A model generated the notes under the pieces. It ran no database searches. It had not been told where the DNA came from and saw only the letters and a list, made by a program, of their open reading frames with translations. 64,000 nt of DNA from Escherichia coli (lineage in GTDB: Bacteria > Pseudomonadota > Gammaproteobacteria > Enterobacterales > Enterobacteriaceae): assembly GCF_002854065.1 (NCBI RefSeq), contig NZ_CP024147.1. One strand, written 5' to 3'. Below are positions 1-42,106 of this stretch, piece by piece. A program made the translations under genes and the position numbers. Each line of letters begins with the position of its first letter. Position 1 is the stretch's first letter.

Positions 1-304
<304 letters not shown>

Positions 305-450
305 TTTTGTTGGCCTGATAAGACGTGGCGCATCAGGCATCGTGCACCGAATGCCGGATGCGGTGTGAACGCCTTATCCGTCCTACAAATACCCGTAATT
401 TCAATATGTTTGGTAGGCATGATAAGACGCGGCAGCGTCGCATCAGGCGC
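305..450. repeat. REP/BIME-type palindromic units in the trpR-yjjX intergenic region
   Basis: Imperfect palindromes of the gcctgatgcgacgctg / gccggatgcggcgtgaacgccttatcc type seen directly. Confidence 0.6.
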
Positions 451-1014: not shown

Positions 1015-1662
1015 ATGTTACAGGTATACCTAGTCCGCCACGGTGAAACGCAGTGGAACGCCGAGCGACGTATTCAGGGCCAGTCTGACAGCCCGCTGAC
1101 CGCCAAAGGTGAGCAACAGGCGATGCAGGTGGCGACGCGTGCCAAAGAGCTTGGCATTACGCATATCATCAGTAGCGATTTAGGGCGCACCCGGCGTACG
1201 GCGGAAATCATCGCCCAGGCCTGCGGCTGTGACATCATCTTTGATTCTCGCCTGCGTGAATTAAACATGGGTGTGCTGGAAAAAAGACATATCGATTCTC
1301 TGACCGAAGAAGAAGAGAACTGGCGTCGGCAGCTGGTCAATGGCACCGTTGACGGGCGTATTCCTGAAGGCGAGTCAATGCAGGAGCTCAGCGATCGCGT
1401 CAATGCGGCACTGGAATCTTGCCGGGACTTACCGCAGGGAAGCCGACCGCTGCTGGTGAGTCATGGTATTGCACTGGGATGCCTGGTGAGTACGATTCTC
1501 GGATTACCAGCATGGGCAGAGCGCCGCTTACGTCTGCGTAACTGTTCTATTTCGCGCGTGGATTATCAGGAAAGCCTGTGGCTGGCGTCTGGCTGGGTCG
1601 TTGAAACCGCAGGGGACATCTCGCATCTGGACGCCCCTGCATTAGATGAGCTGCAGCGTTAA
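1015..1662 (+). CDS. gpmB: Phosphoglycerate mutase-family phosphatase
   Basis: 215-aa ORF with RHGETQWN histidine-phosphatase motif; conserved position next to rob. Confidence 0.9.
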   Translation: MLQVYLVRHGETQWNAERRIQGQSDSPLTAKGEQQAMQVATRAKELGITHIISSDLGRTRRTAEIIAQACGCDIIFDSRLRELNMGVLEKRHIDSLTEEEENWRRQLVNGTVDGRIPEGESMQELSDRVNAALESCRDLPQGSRPLLVSHGIALGCLVSTILGLPAWAERRLRLRNCSISRVDYQESLWLASGWVVETAGDISHLDAPALDELQR

Positions 1663-2528
1663 CGGCGGATAGGAATCAGCAGTTCACAGCGCAGATTAAT
1701 TGGGCGATCTCCCGCTTTGGCGTCTTCTGCCGGGTAGTATCGCTCAATATCCTGACCTTTACGGCGCGTCAGGTTGAGCATTGGCATGCACGTTCCGTAT
1801 ACCGTCAGGATAAACTCCTGCACGCCGGTTCCCAGACCTTCATAGGTAAACATCACATATTCGCCGCCCTGCAGCATCACCGGATGCCCCGTCAGTACAT
1901 AGCCATCTGCCTGATCCTGGGCTAACGCGGTGGTATAGAATACCTCTTGTTCGTCGTCTTTATCCTGACTCGGACGCGTTTCATTCAGGCCGTAGAGCAC
2001 TGGCGGAATGGTCGGCGCGTTGCCGAGAAAATCGTGCCAGAACTGATAACGCATTTCATGGCGGAAATCAGAGATTTGCTCCAGCGAACAGGAGTAGCTC
2101 TGGGTAACACCAATCAGCGGCGTATCTTCCAGGGTGACAAATTTATGCTCTGGCATAGTGAATTCACCCAGACGCAGTGGCGGGCGAATACCAAAGGCGC
2201 TCCATTCAGGAGAACGGCGGTAAAGTGCAGGAGTCTGGGCAAACTGCTTCTTGAATGCGCGGGTAAATGTCTGTTGAGAGTCGAAGCGGTATTGCAGCGC
2301 GATGTCCAGAATCGGACGCGCAGTCAGGCGTAGTGCGACCGCCGATTTCGACAAACGACGAGCACGAATATACGCGCCAATAGCATGGCCAGTGACATCT
2401 TTAAACATTCTCTGTAAGTGCCACTTGGAATAACCTGCTTTCGCCGCTACATTGTCGAGCGACAGGGGCTGATCCAGATGACCTTCCAGCCAGATTAAAA
2501 GGTCGCGAATAATGCCGGCCTGATCCAT
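1659..2528 (-). CDS. rob: AraC/XylS-family transcriptional regulator Rob
   Basis: 289-aa ORF; N-terminal HTH region MDQAGIIRDLLIWLEGHLDQPLSLDNVAAKAGYSKWHLQRMFK. Confidence 0.9.
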   Translation of the reverse strand: MDQAGIIRDLLIWLEGHLDQPLSLDNVAAKAGYSKWHLQRMFKDVTGHAIGAYIRARRLSKSAVALRLTARPILDIALQYRFDSQQTFTRAFKKQFAQTPALYRRSPEWSAFGIRPPLRLGEFTMPEHKFVTLEDTPLIGVTQSYSCSLEQISDFRHEMRYQFWHDFLGNAPTIPPVLYGLNETRPSQDKDDEQEVFYTTALAQDQADGYVLTGHPVMLQGGEYVMFTYEGLGTGVQEFILTVYGTCMPMLNLTRRKGQDIERYYPAEDAKAGDRPINLRCELLIPIRR

Positions 2529-2738
2529 AAAATATCCTCATCCTTTCAACAACGAGCACCTGACATCAGGTAATTGGATAATAGCATTTTTTGCTGTTTT
2601 AGCATTCAGTGTTTTTTTCTTAGTAGAGTATGTTTTAGGTCTTGACGGAAATAAAAGTATTGAGATTTTGTTCTTAATCAATATGTTATTTACCGTGACG
2701 AACTAATTGCTCGTGTAATAGATAAAAATGGTAACAAT

Positions 2739-3212
2739 ATGAAATACAAGCATTTGATCCTGTCTTTAAGCCTGATAATGCTGGGGCCATTGGCTCATGC
2801 AGAAGAGATTGGTTCGGTCGACACCGTATTTAAAATGATCGGCCCGGATCACAAAATTGTTGTGGAAGCCTTTGACGATCCCGATGTGAAAAATGTCACC
2901 TGTTATGTGAGCCGGGCGAAAACAGGTGGTATTAAAGGGGGATTGGGTCTGGCGGAAGATACCTCCGATGCGGCTATTTCTTGTCAGCAAGTCGGGCCGA
3001 TTGAACTGTCGGATCGTATTAAAAACGGCAAAGCTCAGGGCGAGGTAGTATTCAAAAAACGCACGTCCCTGGTCTTTAAGTCGTTACAGGTCGTGCGCTT
3101 TTATGACGCCAAACGCAACGCGCTCGCTTATCTGGCTTACTCCGACAAAGTTGTAGAAGGTTCGCCGAAAAACGCGATTAGCGCGGTTCCTGTCATGCCG
3201 TGGCGGCAATAA
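2739..3212 (+). CDS. creA: CreA family periplasmic protein
   Basis: 157-aa ORF with signal peptide, immediately upstream of creBC. Confidence 0.85.
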
Positions 3213-3224
3213 CAGAGGCGATTT

Positions 3225-3914
3225 ATGCAACGGGAAACGGTCTGGTTAGTGGAAGATGAGCAAGGGATAGCCGACACGCTGGTCTACATGTTGCAGCAGG
3301 AAGGTTTTGCCGTCGAGGTCTTTGAGCGAGGCTTGCCGGTGCTGGATAAAGCTCGCCAGCAGGCTCCCGACGTCATGATTCTCGATGTTGGTTTGCCTGA
3401 TATCAGCGGCTTTGAATTGTGCCGCCAGTTACTGGCGCTCCATCCGGCGTTACCTGTACTGTTCCTGACGGCCCGAAGTGAAGAGGTCGATCGCCTGCTT
3501 GGGCTGGAAATTGGCGCTGACGACTATGTGGCTAAACCGTTTTCACCCCGCGAAGTGTGCGCCAGGGTGCGCACCTTATTGCGTCGGGTGAAGAAGTTCT
3601 CGACGCCGTCTCCCGTCATCCGTATTGGTCATTTTGAATTGAATGAACCCGCGGCGCAGATCAGCTGGTTTGACACGCCATTAACGCTGACGCGGTATGA
3701 GTTTTTATTGCTGAAGACGTTACTCAAGTCGCCAGGCCGCGTCTGGTCCCGCCAGCAACTAATGGATAGCGTGTGGGAAGATGCGCAGGACACCTACGAT
3801 CGCACCGTCGATACCCACATTAAAACGCTGCGTGCCAAGCTGCGCGCCATCAACCCCGATCTTTCACCGATTAATACTCATCGCGGCATGGGATATAGCC
3901 TGAGGGGCCTGTAA
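3225..3914 (+). CDS. creB: Two-component response regulator CreB
   Basis: 229-aa OmpR-family regulator; receiver domain plus winged-helix C-terminus. Confidence 0.9.
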   Translation: MQRETVWLVEDEQGIADTLVYMLQQEGFAVEVFERGLPVLDKARQQAPDVMILDVGLPDISGFELCRQLLALHPALPVLFLTARSEEVDRLLGLEIGADDYVAKPFSPREVCARVRTLLRRVKKFSTPSPVIRIGHFELNEPAAQISWFDTPLTLTRYEFLLLKTLLKSPGRVWSRQQLMDSVWEDAQDTYDRTVDTHIKTLRAKLRAINPDLSPINTHRGMGYSLRGL

Positions 3915-5338
3915 TGCGTATCGGCATGCGGTTGTTGCTGGGCTATTTTTTACTGGTGGCGGTGGCGGCCTGGTTCGTACTGGCTATTTTTGTCAAAGAA
4001 GTTAAACCGGGCGTGCGAAGAGCAACGGAGGGGACGCTGATCGACACCGCAACGTTGCTGGCGGAGCTGGCGCGTCCCGATTTGCTCTCTGGGGACCCAA
4101 CGCATGGGCAACTGGCGCAGGCGTTTAATCAGCTACAACATCGCCCGTTTCGCGCCAATATCGGTGGCATTAACAAAGTGCGCAATGAATATCATGTCTA
4201 TATGACCGATGCGCAGGGCAAAGTATTGTTCGATTCGGCAAATAAAGCCGTTGGGCAGGATTATTCGCGCTGGAATGACGTCTGGCTAACGTTGCGTGGT
4301 CAGTATGGTGCGCGCAGCACGTTGCAAAATCCTGCCGATCCCGAAAGTTCGGTGATGTATGTTGCCGCGCCGATTATGGACGGCTCGCGGCTTATTGGCG
4401 TTTTGAGTGTAGGCAAACCGAACGCGGCGATGGCTCCGGTCATTAAGCGCAGCGAGCGGCGAATTTTATGGGCCAGCGCCATTTTGCTGGGGATTGCACT
4501 GGCGATTGGCGCAGGCATGGTTTGGTGGATCAACCGCTCCATTGCCCGGCTCACTCGCTATGCCGATTCCGTCACTGACAATAAGCCCGTTCCTCTTCCT
4601 GAACTAGGCAGTAGCGAGTTGCGTAAGCTTGCGCAGGCGCTGGAAAGTATGCGCGTGAAGCTGGAAGGGAAAAACTATATTGAGCAGTATGTTTATGCGT
4701 TAACCCATGAGCTAAAAAGCCCACTGGCGGCGATTCGTGGCGCGGCGGAAATTTTACGCGAAGGTCCGCCGCCGGAAGTGGTGGCTCGTTTTACCGACAA
4801 CATTCTGACGCAAAATGCGCGTATGCAGGCATTGGTAGAAACGTTACTACGCCAGGCAAGACTGGAGAATCGTCAGGAAGTCGTTCTGACTGCTGTTGAT
4901 GTGGCGGCATTATTTCGCCGCGTCAGCGAAGCGCGCACCGTGCAGTTGGCAGAAAAAAACATCACTCTACATGTTATGCCCACTGAGGTTAATGTTGCTG
5001 CTGAACCGGCGTTACTGGAGCAGGCGCTGGGGAATTTACTGGATAACGCCATCGATTTTACCCCCGAGAGCGGTCGCATAACGCTAAGCGCCGAAGTGGA
5101 TCAGGAACACGTTGCTCTTAAGGTGCTGGATACCGGTAGTGGTATTCCTGACTACGCGCTGTCACGTATTTTTGAACGCTTTTACTCTTTGCCGCGTGCA
5201 AATGGGCAAAAAAGCAGCGGTCTGGGGTTGGCGTTTGTCAGTGAGGTCGCCCGTTTGTTTAACGGCGAAGTCACGCTGCGCAACGTGCAGGAAGGTGGCG
5301 TGCTGGCCTCGCTTCGACTTCACCGTCACTTCACATAG
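3914..5338 (+). CDS. creC: Sensor histidine kinase CreC
   Basis: 474-aa ORF with transmembrane N-terminus and H-box LTHELKSPLAAIRG; start overlaps creB stop. Confidence 0.9.
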   Translation: MRIGMRLLLGYFLLVAVAAWFVLAIFVKEVKPGVRRATEGTLIDTATLLAELARPDLLSGDPTHGQLAQAFNQLQHRPFRANIGGINKVRNEYHVYMTDAQGKVLFDSANKAVGQDYSRWNDVWLTLRGQYGARSTLQNPADPESSVMYVAAPIMDGSRLIGVLSVGKPNAAMAPVIKRSERRILWASAILLGIALAIGAGMVWWINRSIARLTRYADSVTDNKPVPLPELGSSELRKLAQALESMRVKLEGKNYIEQYVYALTHELKSPLAAIRGAAEILREGPPPEVVARFTDNILTQNARMQALVETLLRQARLENRQEVVLTAVDVAALFRRVSEARTVQLAEKNITLHVMPTEVNVAAEPALLEQALGNLLDNAIDFTPESGRITLSAEVDQEHVALKVLDTGSGIPDYALSRIFERFYSLPRANGQKSSGLGLAFVSEVARLFNGEVTLRNVQEGGVLASLRLHRHFT

Positions 5339-9056: not shown

Positions 9057-9125
<69 letters not shown>

Positions 9126-9148
9126 CGCGTACAGGAAACACAGAAAAA

Positions 9149-9179
9149 AGCCCGCACCTGACAGTGCGGGCTTTTTTTT
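9149..9179 (+). terminator. thr attenuator terminator hairpin
   Basis: agcccgcacctgacagtgcgggc stem followed by T8, between thrL and thrA. Confidence 0.9.
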
Positions 9180-9205
9180 CGACCAAAGGTAACGAGGTAA
9201 CAACC

Positions 9206-14399: not shown

Positions 14400-14540
14400 A
14401 TGACAAATGCCGGGTAACAATCCGGCATTCAGCGCCTGATGCGACGCTGGCGCGTCTTATCAGGCCTACGTGAATTCTGCAATATATTGAATCTGCATGC
14501 TTTTGTAGGCCGGATAAGGCGTTCACGCCGCATCCGGCAT
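14400..14540. repeat. REP/BIME palindromic units downstream of yaaX
   Basis: gcctgatgcgacgctggcgcgtcttatcaggcctac ... gccggataaggcgttcacgccgcatccggc. Confidence 0.6.
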
Positions 14541-14551
14541 TGACTACAAAC

Positions 14552-15328
14552 TTAACGCTGCTCGTAGCGTTTAAACACCAGTTCGCCATTGCTGGAGGAA
14601 GCTTCATCAAAGAAGTAACCTTCGCTATTAAAACCAGTCAGTTGCTCTGGTTTGGTCAGCCGATTTTCAATAATGAAACGACTCATCAGACCGCGTGCTT
14701 TCTTAGCGTAGAAGCTGATTATCTTAAATTTGCCGTTCTTCTCATCGAGGAACACCGGCTTGATAATCTCGGCATTCAATTTCTTCGGCTTCACCGATTT
14801 AAAATACTCATCTGACGCCAGATTAATCACCACATTATCGCCTTGTGCTGCGAGCGCCTCGTTCAGCTTGTTGGTGATGATATCTCCCCAGAATTGATAC
14901 AGATCTTTCCCTCGGGCATTCTCAAGACGGATCCCCATTTCCAGACGATAAGGCTGCATTAAATCGAGCGGGCGGAGTACGCCATACAAGCCGGAAAGCA
15001 TTCGCAAATGCTGTTGGGCAAAATCGAAATCGTCTTCGCTGAAGGTTTCGGCCTGCAAGCCGGTGTAGACATCACCTTTAAACGCCAGAATCGCCTGGCG
15101 GGCATTCTCCGGCGTGAAATCTGGCTGCCAGTCATGAAAGCGAGCGGCGTTGATACCTGCCAGTTTGTCGCTGATACGCATCAGCGTGCTAATCTGCGGA
15201 GGCGTCAGTTTCCGCGCTTCATGGATCAACTGCTGGGAATTGTCTAACAGCTCCGGCAGCGTATATCGCGTGGTGGTCAACGGGCTTTGGTAATCAAGCG
15301 TTTTCGCAGGTGAAATAAGAATCAGCAT
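14552..15328 (-). CDS. yaaA: Peroxide stress protein YaaA (DUF328)
   Basis: 258-aa [31 protein letters not shown]... Confidence 0.9.
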
Positions 15329-15397
15329 ATCCAGTCCTTGCAGGAAATTTATGCCGACTTTAGCAAAAAAAGAGAATGAGTTGATCGATAGTTGTGA

Positions 15398-16828
15398 TTA
15401 CTCCTGCGAAACATCATCCCACGCGTCCCGAGAAAGCTGGCGACCGATATCCGGATAACGCAACGGATCAAACACCGGGCGCACGCCGAGTTTACGCTGG
15501 CGTAGATAATCACTGGCAATGGTATGAACCACAGGCGAGAGCAGTAAAATGGCGGTCAAATTGGTAATAGCCATGCAGGCCATTATGATATCTGCCAGTT
15601 GCCACATCAGCGGAAGACTTAGCAAGGTGCCGCCGATGACCGTTGCGAAGGTGCAGATCCGCAAACACCAGATCGCTTTAGGGTTGTTCAGGCGTAAAAA
15701 GAAGAGATTGTTTTCGGCATAAATGTAGTTGGCAACGATGGAGCTGAAGGCAAACAGAATAACCACGAGGGTAACAAACTCAGCACCCCAGGAACCCATT
15801 AGCACCCGCATCGCCTTCTGGATAAGCTGAATACCTTCCAGCGGCATGTAGGTTGTGCCGTTACCCGCCAGTAATATCAGCATGGCGCTTGCCGTACAGA
15901 TGACCAGGGTGTCGATAAAAATGCCAATCATCTGGACAATTCCTTGCGCTGCCGGATGCGGAGGCCAGGACGCCGCTGCCGCTGCCGCGTTTGGCGTCGA
16001 ACCCATTCCCGCCTCATTGGAAAACATACTGCGCTGAAAACCGTTAGTAATCGCCTGGCTTAAGGTATATCCCGCCGCGCCGCCTGCCGCTTCCTGCCAG
16101 CCAAAAGCACTCTCAAAAATAGACCAAATGACGTGGGGAAGTTGCCCGATATTTATTACGCAAATCACCAGGCTGGTCAGTACCCAGATTATCGCCATCA
16201 ACGGGACAAACCCCTGCATGAGCCGGGCGACGCCATGAAGACCGCGAGTGATTGCCAGCAGAGCAAAGACAGCGAGAATAATGCCTGTCACCAGCGGGGG
16301 AAAATCAAAAGAAAAACTCAGGGCTCGGGCAACAGCGTTTGCCTGAACTCCGCTGAAAATTATGCCGTAGGCGATGAGCAAAAAGACGGCGAACAGAACG
16401 CCCATCCAGCGCATCCCCAGCCCGCGCGACATATACCATGCCGGTCCGCCACGAAACTGCCCATTGACGTCACGTTCTTTATAAAGTTGTGCAAGGGAAC
16501 ATTCGGCAAACGAGGTCGCCATGCCGATAAACGCGGCAACCCACATCCAGAAGACGGCTCCAGGTCCACCGGCGGTAATAGCCAGCGCAACGCCGGCCAG
16601 GTTGCCGCTACCCACGCGCGCCGCAAGACTGGTACACAATGACTGAAATGAGGTTAAACCGCCTGGCTGTGGATGAATGCTATTTTTAAGACTTTTGCCA
16701 AACTGGCGGATGTAGCGAAACTGCACAAATCCGGTGCGAAAAGTGAACCAACAACCTGCGCCGAAGAGCAGGTAAATCATTACCGATCCCCAAAGGACGC
16801 TGTTAATAAAGGAGAAAAAATCTGGCAT
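15398..16828 (-). CDS. yaaJ: Sodium:alanine symporter family transporter
   Basis: 476-aa polytopic membrane ORF at the conserved position. Confidence 0.9.
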   Translation of the reverse strand: MPDFFSFINSVLWGSVMIYLLFGAGCWFTFRTGFVQFRYIRQFGKSLKNSIHPQPGGLTSFQSLCTSLAARVGSGNLAGVALAITAGGPGAVFWMWVAAFIGMATSFAECSLAQLYKERDVNGQFRGGPAWYMSRGLGMRWMGVLFAVFLLIAYGIIFSGVQANAVARALSFSFDFPPLVTGIILAVFALLAITRGLHGVARLMQGFVPLMAIIWVLTSLVICVINIGQLPHVIWSIFESAFGWQEAAGGAAGYTLSQAITNGFQRSMFSNEAGMGSTPNAAAAAASWPPHPAAQGIVQMIGIFIDTLVICTASAMLILLAGNGTTYMPLEGIQLIQKAMRVLMGSWGAEFVTLVVILFAFSSIVANYIYAENNLFFLRLNNPKAIWCLRICTFATVIGGTLLSLPLMWQLADIIMACMAITNLTAILLLSPVVHTIASDYLRQRKLGVRPVFDPLRYPDIGRQLSRDAWDDVSQE

Positions 16829-17106
16829 GCATATCCCTCTTATTGCCGGTCGCGATGACTTTCCTGTGTAAACGTTACCAATTGTTTAAGAAGTATATAC
16901 GCTACGAGGTACTTGATAACTTCTGCGTAGCATACATGAGGTTTTGTTTAAAAATGGCGGGCGATATCAACGCAGTGTCAGAAATCCGAAACAGTCTCGC
17001 CTGGCGATAACCGTCTTGTCGGCGGTTGCGCTGACGTTGCGTCGTGATATCATCAGGGCAGACCGGTTACATCCCCCTAACAAGCTGTTTAAAGAGAAAT
17101 ACTATC

Positions 17107-22948: not shown

Positions 22949-23036
22949 TCGCCCTATAAACGGGTAATTATACTGACACGGGCGAAGGGGAATTTCCTCT
23001 CCGCCCGTGCATTCATCTAGGGGCAATTTAAAAAAG

Positions 23037-24167
23037 ATGGCTAAGCAAGATTATTACGAGATTTTAGGCGTTTCCAAAACAGCGGAAGAGCGTGAAATCA
23101 AAAAGGCCTACAAACGCCTGGCCATGAAATACCACCCGGACCGTAACCAGGGTGACAAAGAGGCCGAGGCGAAATTTAAAGAGATCAAGGAAGCTTATAA
23201 AGTTCTGACCGACTCGCAAAAACGTGCGGCATACGATCAGTATGGTCATGCTGCGTTTGAGCAAGGTGGCATGGGCGGCGGCGGTTTTGGCGGCGGCGCA
23301 GACTTCAGCGATATTTTTGGTGACGTTTTCGGCGATATTTTTGGCGGCGGACGTGGTCGTCAACGTGCGGCGCGCGGTGCTGATTTACGCTATAACATGG
23401 AGCTCACCCTCGAAGAAGCTGTACGTGGCGTGACCAAAGAGATCCGCATTCCGACTCTGGAAGAGTGTGACGTTTGCCACGGTAGCGGTGCAAAACCAGG
23501 TACACAGCCGCAGACCTGTCCGACCTGTCATGGTTCTGGTCAGGTGCAGATGCGCCAGGGTTTCTTTGCCGTGCAGCAGACCTGTCCACACTGTCAGGGC
23601 CGCGGTACGCTGATCAAAGATCCGTGCAACAAATGTCATGGTCATGGTCGTGTTGAGCGCAGCAAAACGCTGTCCGTTAAAATCCCGGCAGGGGTGGACA
23701 CTGGAGACCGCATCCGTCTTGCGGGCGAAGGTGAAGCGGGTGAGCATGGCGCACCGGCAGGCGATCTGTACGTTCAGGTTCAGGTTAAACAGCACCCGAT
23801 TTTCGAGCGTGAAGGCAACAACCTGTATTGCGAAGTCCCGATCAACTTCGCTATGGCGGCGCTGGGTGGTGAAATCGAAGTACCGACCCTTGATGGTCGC
23901 GTTAAACTGAAAGTGCCTGGCGAAACCCAGACCGGTAAGCTGTTCCGTATGCGCGGTAAAGGCGTCAAGTCTGTCCGCGGTGGCGCACAGGGTGATTTGC
24001 TGTGCCGCGTTGTCGTCGAAACACCGGTAGGCCTGAACGAGAAGCAGAAACAGCTGCTGCAAGAGCTGCAAGAAAGCTTCGGTGGCCCAACCGGCGAGCA
24101 CAACAGCCCGCGCTCAAAGAGCTTCTTTGATGGTGTGAAGAAGTTTTTTGACGACCTGACCCGCTAA
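23037..24167 (+). CDS. dnaJ: Hsp40 co-chaperone DnaJ
   Basis: Start at [14 protein letters not shown] inside ORF 23007..24167; J-domain, G/F region, CxxCxGxG zinc fingers. Confidence 0.95.
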
Positions 24168-24270
24168 CCTTCCCAAAAGCCTGCCCGTGGGCAGGCCTGG
24201 GTAAAAATAGGGTGCGTTGAAGATATGCGAGCACCTGTAAAGTGGCGGGGATCACTCCCCGCCGTTGCTC

Positions 24271-24423
24271 TTACTCGGATTCGTAAGCCGTGAAAACAGC
24301 AACCTCCGTCTGGCCAGTTCGGATGTGAACCTCACAGAGGTCTTTTCTCGTTACCAGCGCCGCCACTACGGCGGTGATACAGATGACGATCAGGGCGACA
24401 ATCATCGCCTTATGCTGCTTCAT
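24271..24423 (-). CDS. hokC: Type I toxin HokC (Gef), 50 aa
   Basis: MKQHKAMIVALIVICITAVVAALVTRKDLCEVHIRTGQTEVAVFTAYESE is embedded in the 80-aa ORF 24271..24513, which is the overlapping mokC frame. Confidence 0.85.
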   Translation of the reverse strand: MKQHKAMIVALIVICITAVVAALVTRKDLCEVHIRTGQTEVAVFTAYESE

Positions 24424-25008
24424 TGCTCTCTTCTCCTTGACCTTACGGTCAGTAAGAGGCACTCTACATGTGTTCAGCATATAGGGGGCCTCGGGTTGAT
24501 GGTAAAATATCACTCGGGGCTTTTCTCTATCTGCCGTTCAGCTAATGCCTGAGACAGACAGCCTCAAGCACCCGCCGCTATTATATCGCTCTCTTTAACC
24601 CATTCTGTTTTATCGATTCTAATCCGGAAGACGCCTCGCATTTTTATGGCGTAATTTTTTAATGATTTAATTATTTAACTTTAATTTATCTCTTCATCGC
24701 AATTATTGACGACAAGCTGGATTATTTTTGAAATATTGGCCTAACAAACATCGCCGACTGACAACAAATTAATTATTACTTTTCCTAATTAATCCCTCAG
24801 AAATCCTCACCTTAAGCTATGATTATCAGGGCTTAGGGTCACCCGTCAGCGCTTACAGCCGTCAAAAACGCATCTCACCGCTGATGGCGCAAATTCTTCA
24901 ATAGCTCGTAAAAAACGAATTATTCCTACACTATAATCTGATTTTAACGATGATTCGTGCGGGGTAAAATAGTAAAAACGATCTATTCACCTGAAAGAGA
25001 AATAAAAA

Positions 25009-41661: not shown

Positions 41662-42064
41662 CCACAAAATGTTTATGATGATGCAAAAGTAACACATTTA
41701 ATTTATTAATTATAAAGGGCTTTAATTTTTAGCCCTTTTATTTTTGGTGTTATGCTTTTAAATTTTCTATAACTGCCAAAAATTACATGTTTTGTCTTCT
41801 ATTTTTGTTGTTTTAATGTAAATTTTGACCATTTGGTCCACTTTTTCCTGCTCGTTTTTATTTCATGCAATCTTCTTGCTGCGCAAGCGTTTTACAGAAC
41901 AGGTTAGATGATCTTTTTGTCGCTTAATGCCTGTAAAACATGCATGAGCCACAAAATAATATAAAAAATCCTGCCATTAAGTTGACTTTTAGCGCCCATA
42001 TCTCCAGAATGCCGCCGTTTGCCAGAAATTCGTCGGTAAGCAGATTTGCATTGATTTACGTCAT

Positions 42065-42106
42065 CATTGTGAATTAATATGCAAATAAAGTGAGTGAATA
42101 TTCTCT
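42065..42106 (+). promoter_or_regulatory. carAB P2 region with tandem ARG-box-like ArgR operators
   Basis: ttgtgaattaatatgcaaa and gtgagtgaatattctct resemble the ARG box (TnTGAATwwwwATTCAnw) just upstream of carA. Confidence 0.5.

Follow-up and report, generated by a model that had tools for sequence, protein, structure and literature searches.

Introduction

The hok/sok (parB) locus of plasmid R1 and related plasmid loci share a layout in which the mok frame overlaps hok and the antisense RNA Sok lies over the start of mok, and in R1 the translation of hok depends on the translation of mok (PMC9841398). The pairing between tac at the 5′ end of the mRNA and fbi near its 3′ end was also defined for R1 (PMC9841398). 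Within the R1 3′ UTR, 19 of 22 loss-of-function substitutions break C-G pairs in the stem that ends the processed hok mRNA (Tr), and processed mRNA disappears when this stem is broken, which argues that the stem protects the active mRNA from 3′-5′ exonucleases (PMC9841398). With R1 hok inserted in the chromosome, knocking out the Sok promoter was lethal or selected suppressors in hok (PMC9841398).

The chromosomal relative of this system in K-12 is gef/hokC-mokC-sokC (b4412, b0018, b4413), for which RNase III-processed mokC/sokC double-stranded RNA was detected (PMC7373196). The presence of IS186 beside hokC and hokE in K-12 is old knowledge, and the difference between K-12 and IS-free hokC has already been described. 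The IS186 downstream of K-12 gef is thought to disrupt fbi and mRNA processing, the transcript ending within the IS (PMC3562002). An IS-free hokC is found in ECOR24, for which the literature reports a transcript of ~330 nt (PMC3562002) and, in a passage citing Pedersen and Gerdes 1999, neither post-segregational killing nor rifampicin activation (bioRxiv 10.1101/2025.08.07.668861). HokC is toxic when overexpressed, and hokC reportedly needs A-to-I editing by TadA to make Cys; full toxicity of HokC may require Tyr47-to-Cys RNA editing (bioRxiv 10.1101/2025.08.07.668861).

Results

Locus Layout and Comparison with K-12

The window, which is the whole stretch of Escherichia coli DNA analyzed here (64,000 nucleotides), carries hokC and mokC between dnaJ and nhaA, the latter starting at 25009 (Table 1). 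The match of HokC to Pfam PF01848 (HOK_GEF) spans all 42 profile positions, with E=4.6e-24 and 84.2 bits (cut-off 22). Strain CUWW06 has the same sequence over 24100..25010 (100% identity), matches to this segment occur in 5425 of 5426 complete E. coli genomes, and the dnaJ-hokC-nhaA order and its RefSeq annotation are kept in those 5425. Judged by shared synteny and near-identical sequence, the locus is the ortholog of K-12 hokC (b4412). We consider it very probable that the window holds an uninterrupted, wild-type hokC/mokC/sokC type I toxin-antitoxin locus, orthologous to K-12 gef/hokC and built like R1 hok/sok.

Table 1. Coordinates of the Features of the hokC/mokC/sokC Locus in the Window
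Feature	Position	Strand	Basis
dnaJ (376 aa)	23037..24167	+	ORF list; RefSeq annotation of identical or near-identical genomes; length equals K-12 dnaJ
dnaJ stop TAA	24165..24167	+	
Predicted intrinsic terminator of full-length hokC mRNA	24175..24196	-	Stem GCCUGCCC/GGGCAGGC at 24179..24196, then UUUU at 24178..24175
fbi, predicted to pair with mRNA 5′ end (tac) in full-length transcript	24210..24222	-	MFE partners of nt 1-12; homolog folds
GC-rich post-stop hairpin GGCGGGGATCACTCCCCGCC	24244..24263	-	8 perfect pairs, 4-nt loop; mRNA nt 311-330; 7 nt past stop
hokC, 50-aa Hok/Gef membrane toxin	24271..24423	-	Intact ORF; nucleotide-identical to K-12 hokC
mokC, 69-aa leader frame overlapping hokC in frame	24271..24480	-	Intact ORF; length and position equal K-12 mokC
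Tyr47 codon UAC in UUACGAA, reported TadA editing context (Tyr to Cys)	24283..24285	-	Read from sequence
hokC mRNA 5′ leader	24421..24573	-	Rfam RF01794 and alternative folds
hok SD	24438..24433	-	
dcb	24460..24456	-	GCCUC, mRNA nt 114-118
mok SD	24492..24489	-	
ucb	24522..24516	-	AAGCCCC, mRNA nt 52-58
5′ metastable hairpin	24572..24544	-	mRNA nt 2-30; seen in slightly longer truncation fold
tac	24573..24562	-	
hokC promoter -10 TATAAT	24585..24580 (promoter region 24574..24585)	-	Read from sequence; 6 nt upstream of +1 G24573
Predicted SokC promoter	24437..24465	+	-35 TTGACC 24437..24442, 17-bp spacer, -10 CACTCT 24460..24465; placed relative to K-12 sokC 5′ end
SokC antisense RNA, 59 nt	24472..24530	+	K-12 sokC 16952..17010 transposed by +7520

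In the K-12 genome (NC_000913), IS186A occupies 15387..16731, with insL1 on the plus strand, between dnaJ (ending at 15298) and hokC (16751..16903) with mokC (to 16960), and the annotation agrees with the original prediction, which had placed an IS186 there. That prediction also held that the lineage of the window lacks the K-12 insertion, with about 100 bp between dnaJ and hokC and both frames intact. Base-by-base alignment to the K-12 interval bears this out: the spacer is an intact 103 bp (24168..24270), and the K-12 interval equals that of the window plus a 1339-bp IS186 core and a 10-bp duplication. IS186A entered the inverted repeat that follows hokC, the left flank in K-12 reaching to window position 24255-24259 and the right flank resuming from 24248-24252, with a target duplication of 10-12 bp (core GGGATCACTCC, about 24248..24258). 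No IS186 end lies within the 64-kb window.

When the IS core and one copy of the duplication are removed, 24486 is the only base that differs between K-12 and the window across the ~400-nt hokC transcription unit and SokC, the coding sequences of hokC and mokC being the same, whereas the 435 nt from the hokC promoter to nhaA hold nine differences. The allele of a diverged lineage (L021) carries six substitutions in the 400-nt transcript: four lie in the spacer 24197..24209, the leader stem has one, and the sixth replaces Glu by Gly at HokC residue 50. In this allele, tac, fbi, ucb, SD, dcb and the hairpin are unchanged, and 26 substitutions fall in the 105 nt upstream of its -10. Within E. coli, the hokC transcribed unit is conserved far better than its flank. 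fbi is identical in the diverged E. coli alleles, and, compared with K-12 or the family, none of the regulatory elements of the window has a disabling change.

In some lineages (L021, L019), divergence rises as a sharp cliff just upstream of the hokC -10 (window 24586..24700), and an ompK-like/sulfatase island separates hokC from nhaA in the same lineages. The boundary of the hokC unit thus coincides with that of a variable region. In the RefSeq records of hits H1-H30 and of L002-L007, PGAP gives the 153-nt hokC ORF the name "mokC: type I toxin-antitoxin system toxin MokC", and the 210-nt mok frame and sokC are without annotation. A 95-aa plus-strand ORF lying antisense to hokC (24265..24552) was regarded as spurious.

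Predicted Folding and Processing of the hokC mRNA

The hokC promoter has a perfect -10 (TATAAT) and lacks a good -35; five diverged homologs have a -10 hexamer at an equal spacing. Rfam RF01794 matches the leader on the minus strand with 119.5 bits (gathering score 59) over model positions 1-157 of 157. This family is named "sok antitoxin"; its match lies on the sense strand and spans the hok mRNA leader between +1 and the hok AUG. The SokC-encoding strand (24472..24530, plus) is not matched, so that pipelines annotating with this family would give "sok" the wrong strand and ~100 nt of excess length.

At the other end of the transcript, the stem of the predicted terminator is an inverted repeat with 8 of 8 pairs that is present in both the MFE and the centroid folds, and the U-run, read from the sequence, has just four U. 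Located 12 bp past the dnaJ stop, the terminator probably serves dnaJ too. The hairpin at 24175..24196 has its U-run on the minus (hokC) strand, the plus strand having only an A-run before the hairpin; as a terminator it seems to suit hokC better than dnaJ, and it may be shared by these genes, which converge here. A scan for consensus promoters and terminators left the hokC promoter, the SokC promoter and the hokC terminator uncalled, the first because its -35 is poor and the last because it has only four U.

Folding of the full-length transcript (24573..24174, 400 nt) gave an MFE of -168.5 kcal/mol (z = -6.45) with tac/fbi closure: mRNA nt 1-12 are paired with 24210..24222 in both the MFE and the centroid folds, and the mok SD is held by ucb. 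In the folds of the truncated RNAs (nt 1..331, 1..333 and 1..336), tac (nt 1-8) pairs with ucb (nt 52-58), and the mok SD GAGGC (82-86) pairs with dcb GCCUC (114-118). All of the conformations known for R1 hok mRNA are predicted for the hokC mRNA.

For comparison, plasmid hok copies with at most 75% identity (60-75%) were taken from a plasmid collection and each folded separately. In the folds of all six homologs, the 5′ end pairs with a 3′ segment located between the post-stop GC hairpin and the terminator. Within tac/fbi, double-sided changes occur at pairs 3 and 7, three sequences having U-A and two having C-G at the third pair, the seventh being U-A, G-C or G-U, with one uncompensated mismatch in one homolog (L008). 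This covariation was judged from the fold partners in each sequence, since a MAFFT alignment of the six full-length mRNAs misaligned the short fbi in three. The GC hairpin after the stop is kept as a structure in all six homologs, with varying (co-varying) sequence.

The inverted repeat had been located at about 24244..24263, and these coordinates proved exact. By analogy with R1, this hairpin is predicted to be the terminal protective stem-loop of the processed hokC mRNA, and the predicted processed length of 331-336 nt agrees with the ~330 nt of the ECOR24 transcript. By prediction, the primary transcript runs through fbi to the terminator by the dnaJ stop and ends near 24175, ~70-90 nt past the hairpin. 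The original prediction, in which the repeat marks the 3′ end of the mRNA, would therefore apply to the processed, translatable mRNA, by homology to R1 Tr-hok (PMC9841398), and not to the primary transcript, which is predicted to reach the terminator at 24179..24196.

The Antisense RNA SokC

SokC is complementary to nt 44-102 of the hokC mRNA, a segment that includes ucb, the mok SD and the mok AUG, and folds into a terminator-like stem-loop followed by a U-run (-23.1 kcal/mol, z = -4.95). Compared with K-12, the RNA differs at one base (24486) and the promoter is the same. The -10 element CACTCT is weak, other members of the family having TACTCT or TAATCT. The Sok promoter had been expected near 24480..24560; that range covers the body of SokC, and the predicted promoter maps instead to 24437..24465. 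The only promoter-like sequence that the consensus scan called on the plus strand (24555..24584) was rejected as the Sok promoter, such sequences being at chance level (4 found vs 1.6 +/- 1.3 expected).

IS186 Insertion at the Post-Stop Hairpin

The preferred target of IS186 is 5′-GGGG(N6/N7)CCCC (PMC6925257). The hairpin sequence GGGGATCACTCCCC at 24247..24260 matches GGGG-N6-CCCC, a motif that occurs nowhere else in the 64 kb. The IS186 in the K-12 hokC hairpin has its transposase gene in the same direction as dnaJ; five other strains (L002-L005, L007) carry the element the other way round, with identical breakpoints and the same 10-12-bp duplication. At least two independent IS186 insertions at the hokC hairpin are well supported, because the IS end next to hokC cannot be inverted by recombination between IS copies.

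Using a 200-nt query centered on the junction and a coverage of at least 80%, we found the empty site in 3814 of 5426 complete E. coli genomes (~70%), the others breaking at window 24248. The window has the common, majority empty-site state, and the disrupted state of K-12 is the minority (~30%). Junction queries of 183 nt assigned ~829 of the 5426 genomes to the K-12 orientation and ~939 to the reverse, counts that are slightly too high (829 + 939 + 3814 = 5582 > 5426) because junctions between plasmid hok and IS186 match too. These queries replaced 140-nt ones, which over-counted since hokE-IS186 junctions also exceeded 80% coverage. By junction queries, at least half of the genomes are without any IS186 end (median 1 place per genome). 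We found no description of the two-orientation population picture in a literature search that was not aimed at it.

Related loci are hit at the equivalent place. K-12 hokE (L013, locus 1237..1408) has IS186B 19 bp past its stop codon, hokE-IS186 junctions are found in both orientations, and hok copies on IncHI1B plasmids (L009, L010; hits H103, H115, H129, H141) are cut by IS186 at the base equivalent to window 24248. In these paralogous (K-12 hokE) or plasmid-borne loci, IS186 occupies the corresponding GC hairpin, 19-20 bp past the hok stop; the hokC hairpin of the window is unoccupied.

Several genomes show further rearrangements of the locus. IS150 is found in the hokC leader/SokC region of STEC276 (L003) and EC31 (L005) at locus about 2876..4245, corresponding to window ~24494 (hit H29); both strains also have IS186 in the hairpin, so that two different IS elements occur in the same small locus. 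In EC31 (NZ_CP060987), hokC-IS186 is flanked by entD/fepA and ybdK, which is the neighborhood of hokE, and this arrangement suggests a large inversion through recombination between the hokC and hokE copies of IS186. TUM2820 (L020, NZ_CP135688) has no hokC and instead carries a truncated IS186 transposase and IS1 between dnaJ and nhaA, remnants which indicate that the hokC locus was deleted through IS activity. In MLI104K2 (L006, NZ_CP116925), a 711-bp insert was considered as a separate element and rejected as a garbled G/C homopolymer assembly of IS186: the noise at locus 1890..2600, annotated as a "hypothetical protein" of 251 aa, runs into a recognizable IS186 end and is an assembly artifact in a RefSeq complete genome.

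Discussion

Homology to R1 and the predicted folds point to the following course of events at this locus. The weak promoter TATAAT would give an mRNA of ~400 nt, from G24573 to the terminator at 24179..24196. In the full-length mRNA, tac and fbi would be closed and the mok SD sequestered by ucb, making the RNA stable, untranslated and blind to SokC. Slow trimming from the 3′ end would halt at the GC hairpin (24244..24263), and the ~331-336-nt product would refold (tac with ucb, mok SD with dcb), exposing the SokC target and permitting mokC-coupled translation of hokC. SokC would pair with this processed form, the duplex being cut by RNase III, and upon loss of SokC the 50-aa HokC would enter and damage the inner membrane. 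In K-12, the IS186 within the hairpin cuts the 3′ arm of the hairpin, fbi and the terminator off the hokC transcript; the window keeps every one of these parts.

The UACGAA around Tyr47 (window 24280..24286) is invariant in the six diverged hok homologs (alignment A1, columns 327-333). The UUACGAA of the window presumably resembles the anticodon loop of tRNA-Arg2. This sequence context fits the TadA editing that has been reported for hok family mRNAs.

Compared with R1 hok/sok, the locus has the same mok/hok overlap and the same placement of the antisense RNA, and the set of tac, fbi, ucb, dcb and terminal hairpin with its predicted two-state switch is also shared (PMC9841398). Unlike R1 and the related plasmid loci, it is chromosomal, has at most 75% nucleotide identity to plasmid homologs and a diverged toxin, and its SokC -10 is CACTCT rather than a hexamer starting with TA. 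Plasmid stabilization, a trait of R1, is not expected for the window locus and is reportedly absent for hokC. The K-12 locus, in the same position, is set apart by its IS186A in the post-stop hairpin. ECOR24 hokC resembles the window in being IS-free and in its ~330-nt transcript (PMC3562002; bioRxiv 10.1101/2025.08.07.668861), a likeness by description; that allele was tested experimentally and reportedly gave no post-segregational killing. The notion of a functional toxin-antitoxin module holds in part: nothing in the sequence speaks against it, since all regulatory elements can be mapped and the predicted folds switch as in R1, but the ECOR24 result means that an R1-like switch may not lead to killing in the chromosomal context.

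The locus could be structurally intact and still biologically inert, a decaying remnant of a plasmid-type killer that is under no selection and has not yet been disrupted here. Natural disruption is frequent (IS186 in ~30% of genomes, IS150 in the leader, the deletion in TUM2820) and the SokC -10 departs from the family consensus, which both speak for such decay. However, the differences are concentrated outside the transcript, both relative to K-12 (one in the 400-nt transcript vs nine in the next 435 nt) and in the diverged lineage (six in 400 nt, with key elements untouched, vs 26 in the 105 nt preceding the -10), each allele examined has intact ORFs, and HokC is toxic on overexpression (bioRxiv 10.1101/2025.08.07.668861). 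Inertness is thus an explanation that we take seriously and regard as rather unlikely. It is very improbable that the empty site is secondary, with an IS186 once present in the lineage and precisely excised, which would make the window a revertant. Precise excision of IS186 has been observed at the lon promoter (PMC3861542), and the hokC site is a strong target used in both orientations; yet the target in the window is a single clean copy without a footprint, no IS186 end lies elsewhere in the 64 kb, and with at least half of the complete genomes having no IS186 end (median 1 place per genome), a site that was never occupied is the simpler reading.

An uninterrupted wild-type locus therefore remains the reading that we prefer. 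The protective 3′-UTR hairpin of the hok family might be a built-in landing pad for IS186 (GGGG-N6-CCCC) that was hit many times independently, with insertion being a recurrent and possibly selected disarming or rewiring, and with hokC as the chief site of IS186 on the E. coli chromosome. We put this forward as a rather unlikely speculation; target preference alone can be enough to explain the two-orientation pattern. If true, IS186 insertion would be a recurrent, possibly selected route to disarm or rewire hok toxins. The hairpin hotspot, hit in both orientations and at paralogous loci too, neatly illustrates how a toxin locus can be inactivated again and again through its target site.

Beyond correct annotation, the locus of the window matters little in itself; it confirms that K-12 gef/hokC is a disrupted minority form. 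A strain with the complete regulatory unit is a better template for the study of chromosomal hok/sok, and the element map (Table 1) gives exact coordinates.

Other RNA Families in the Window

Four other Rfam families in the window exceed their gathering score: the Thr operon leader at 9061..9180 (plus), ES036 at 14462..14504 (minus), tpke11 at 22959..23036 (plus) between dnaK and dnaJ, and ES003 at 42017..42069 (plus). The position of the thr leader at ~9.06 kb places the start of the window ~8.9 kb before the K-12 coordinate origin.
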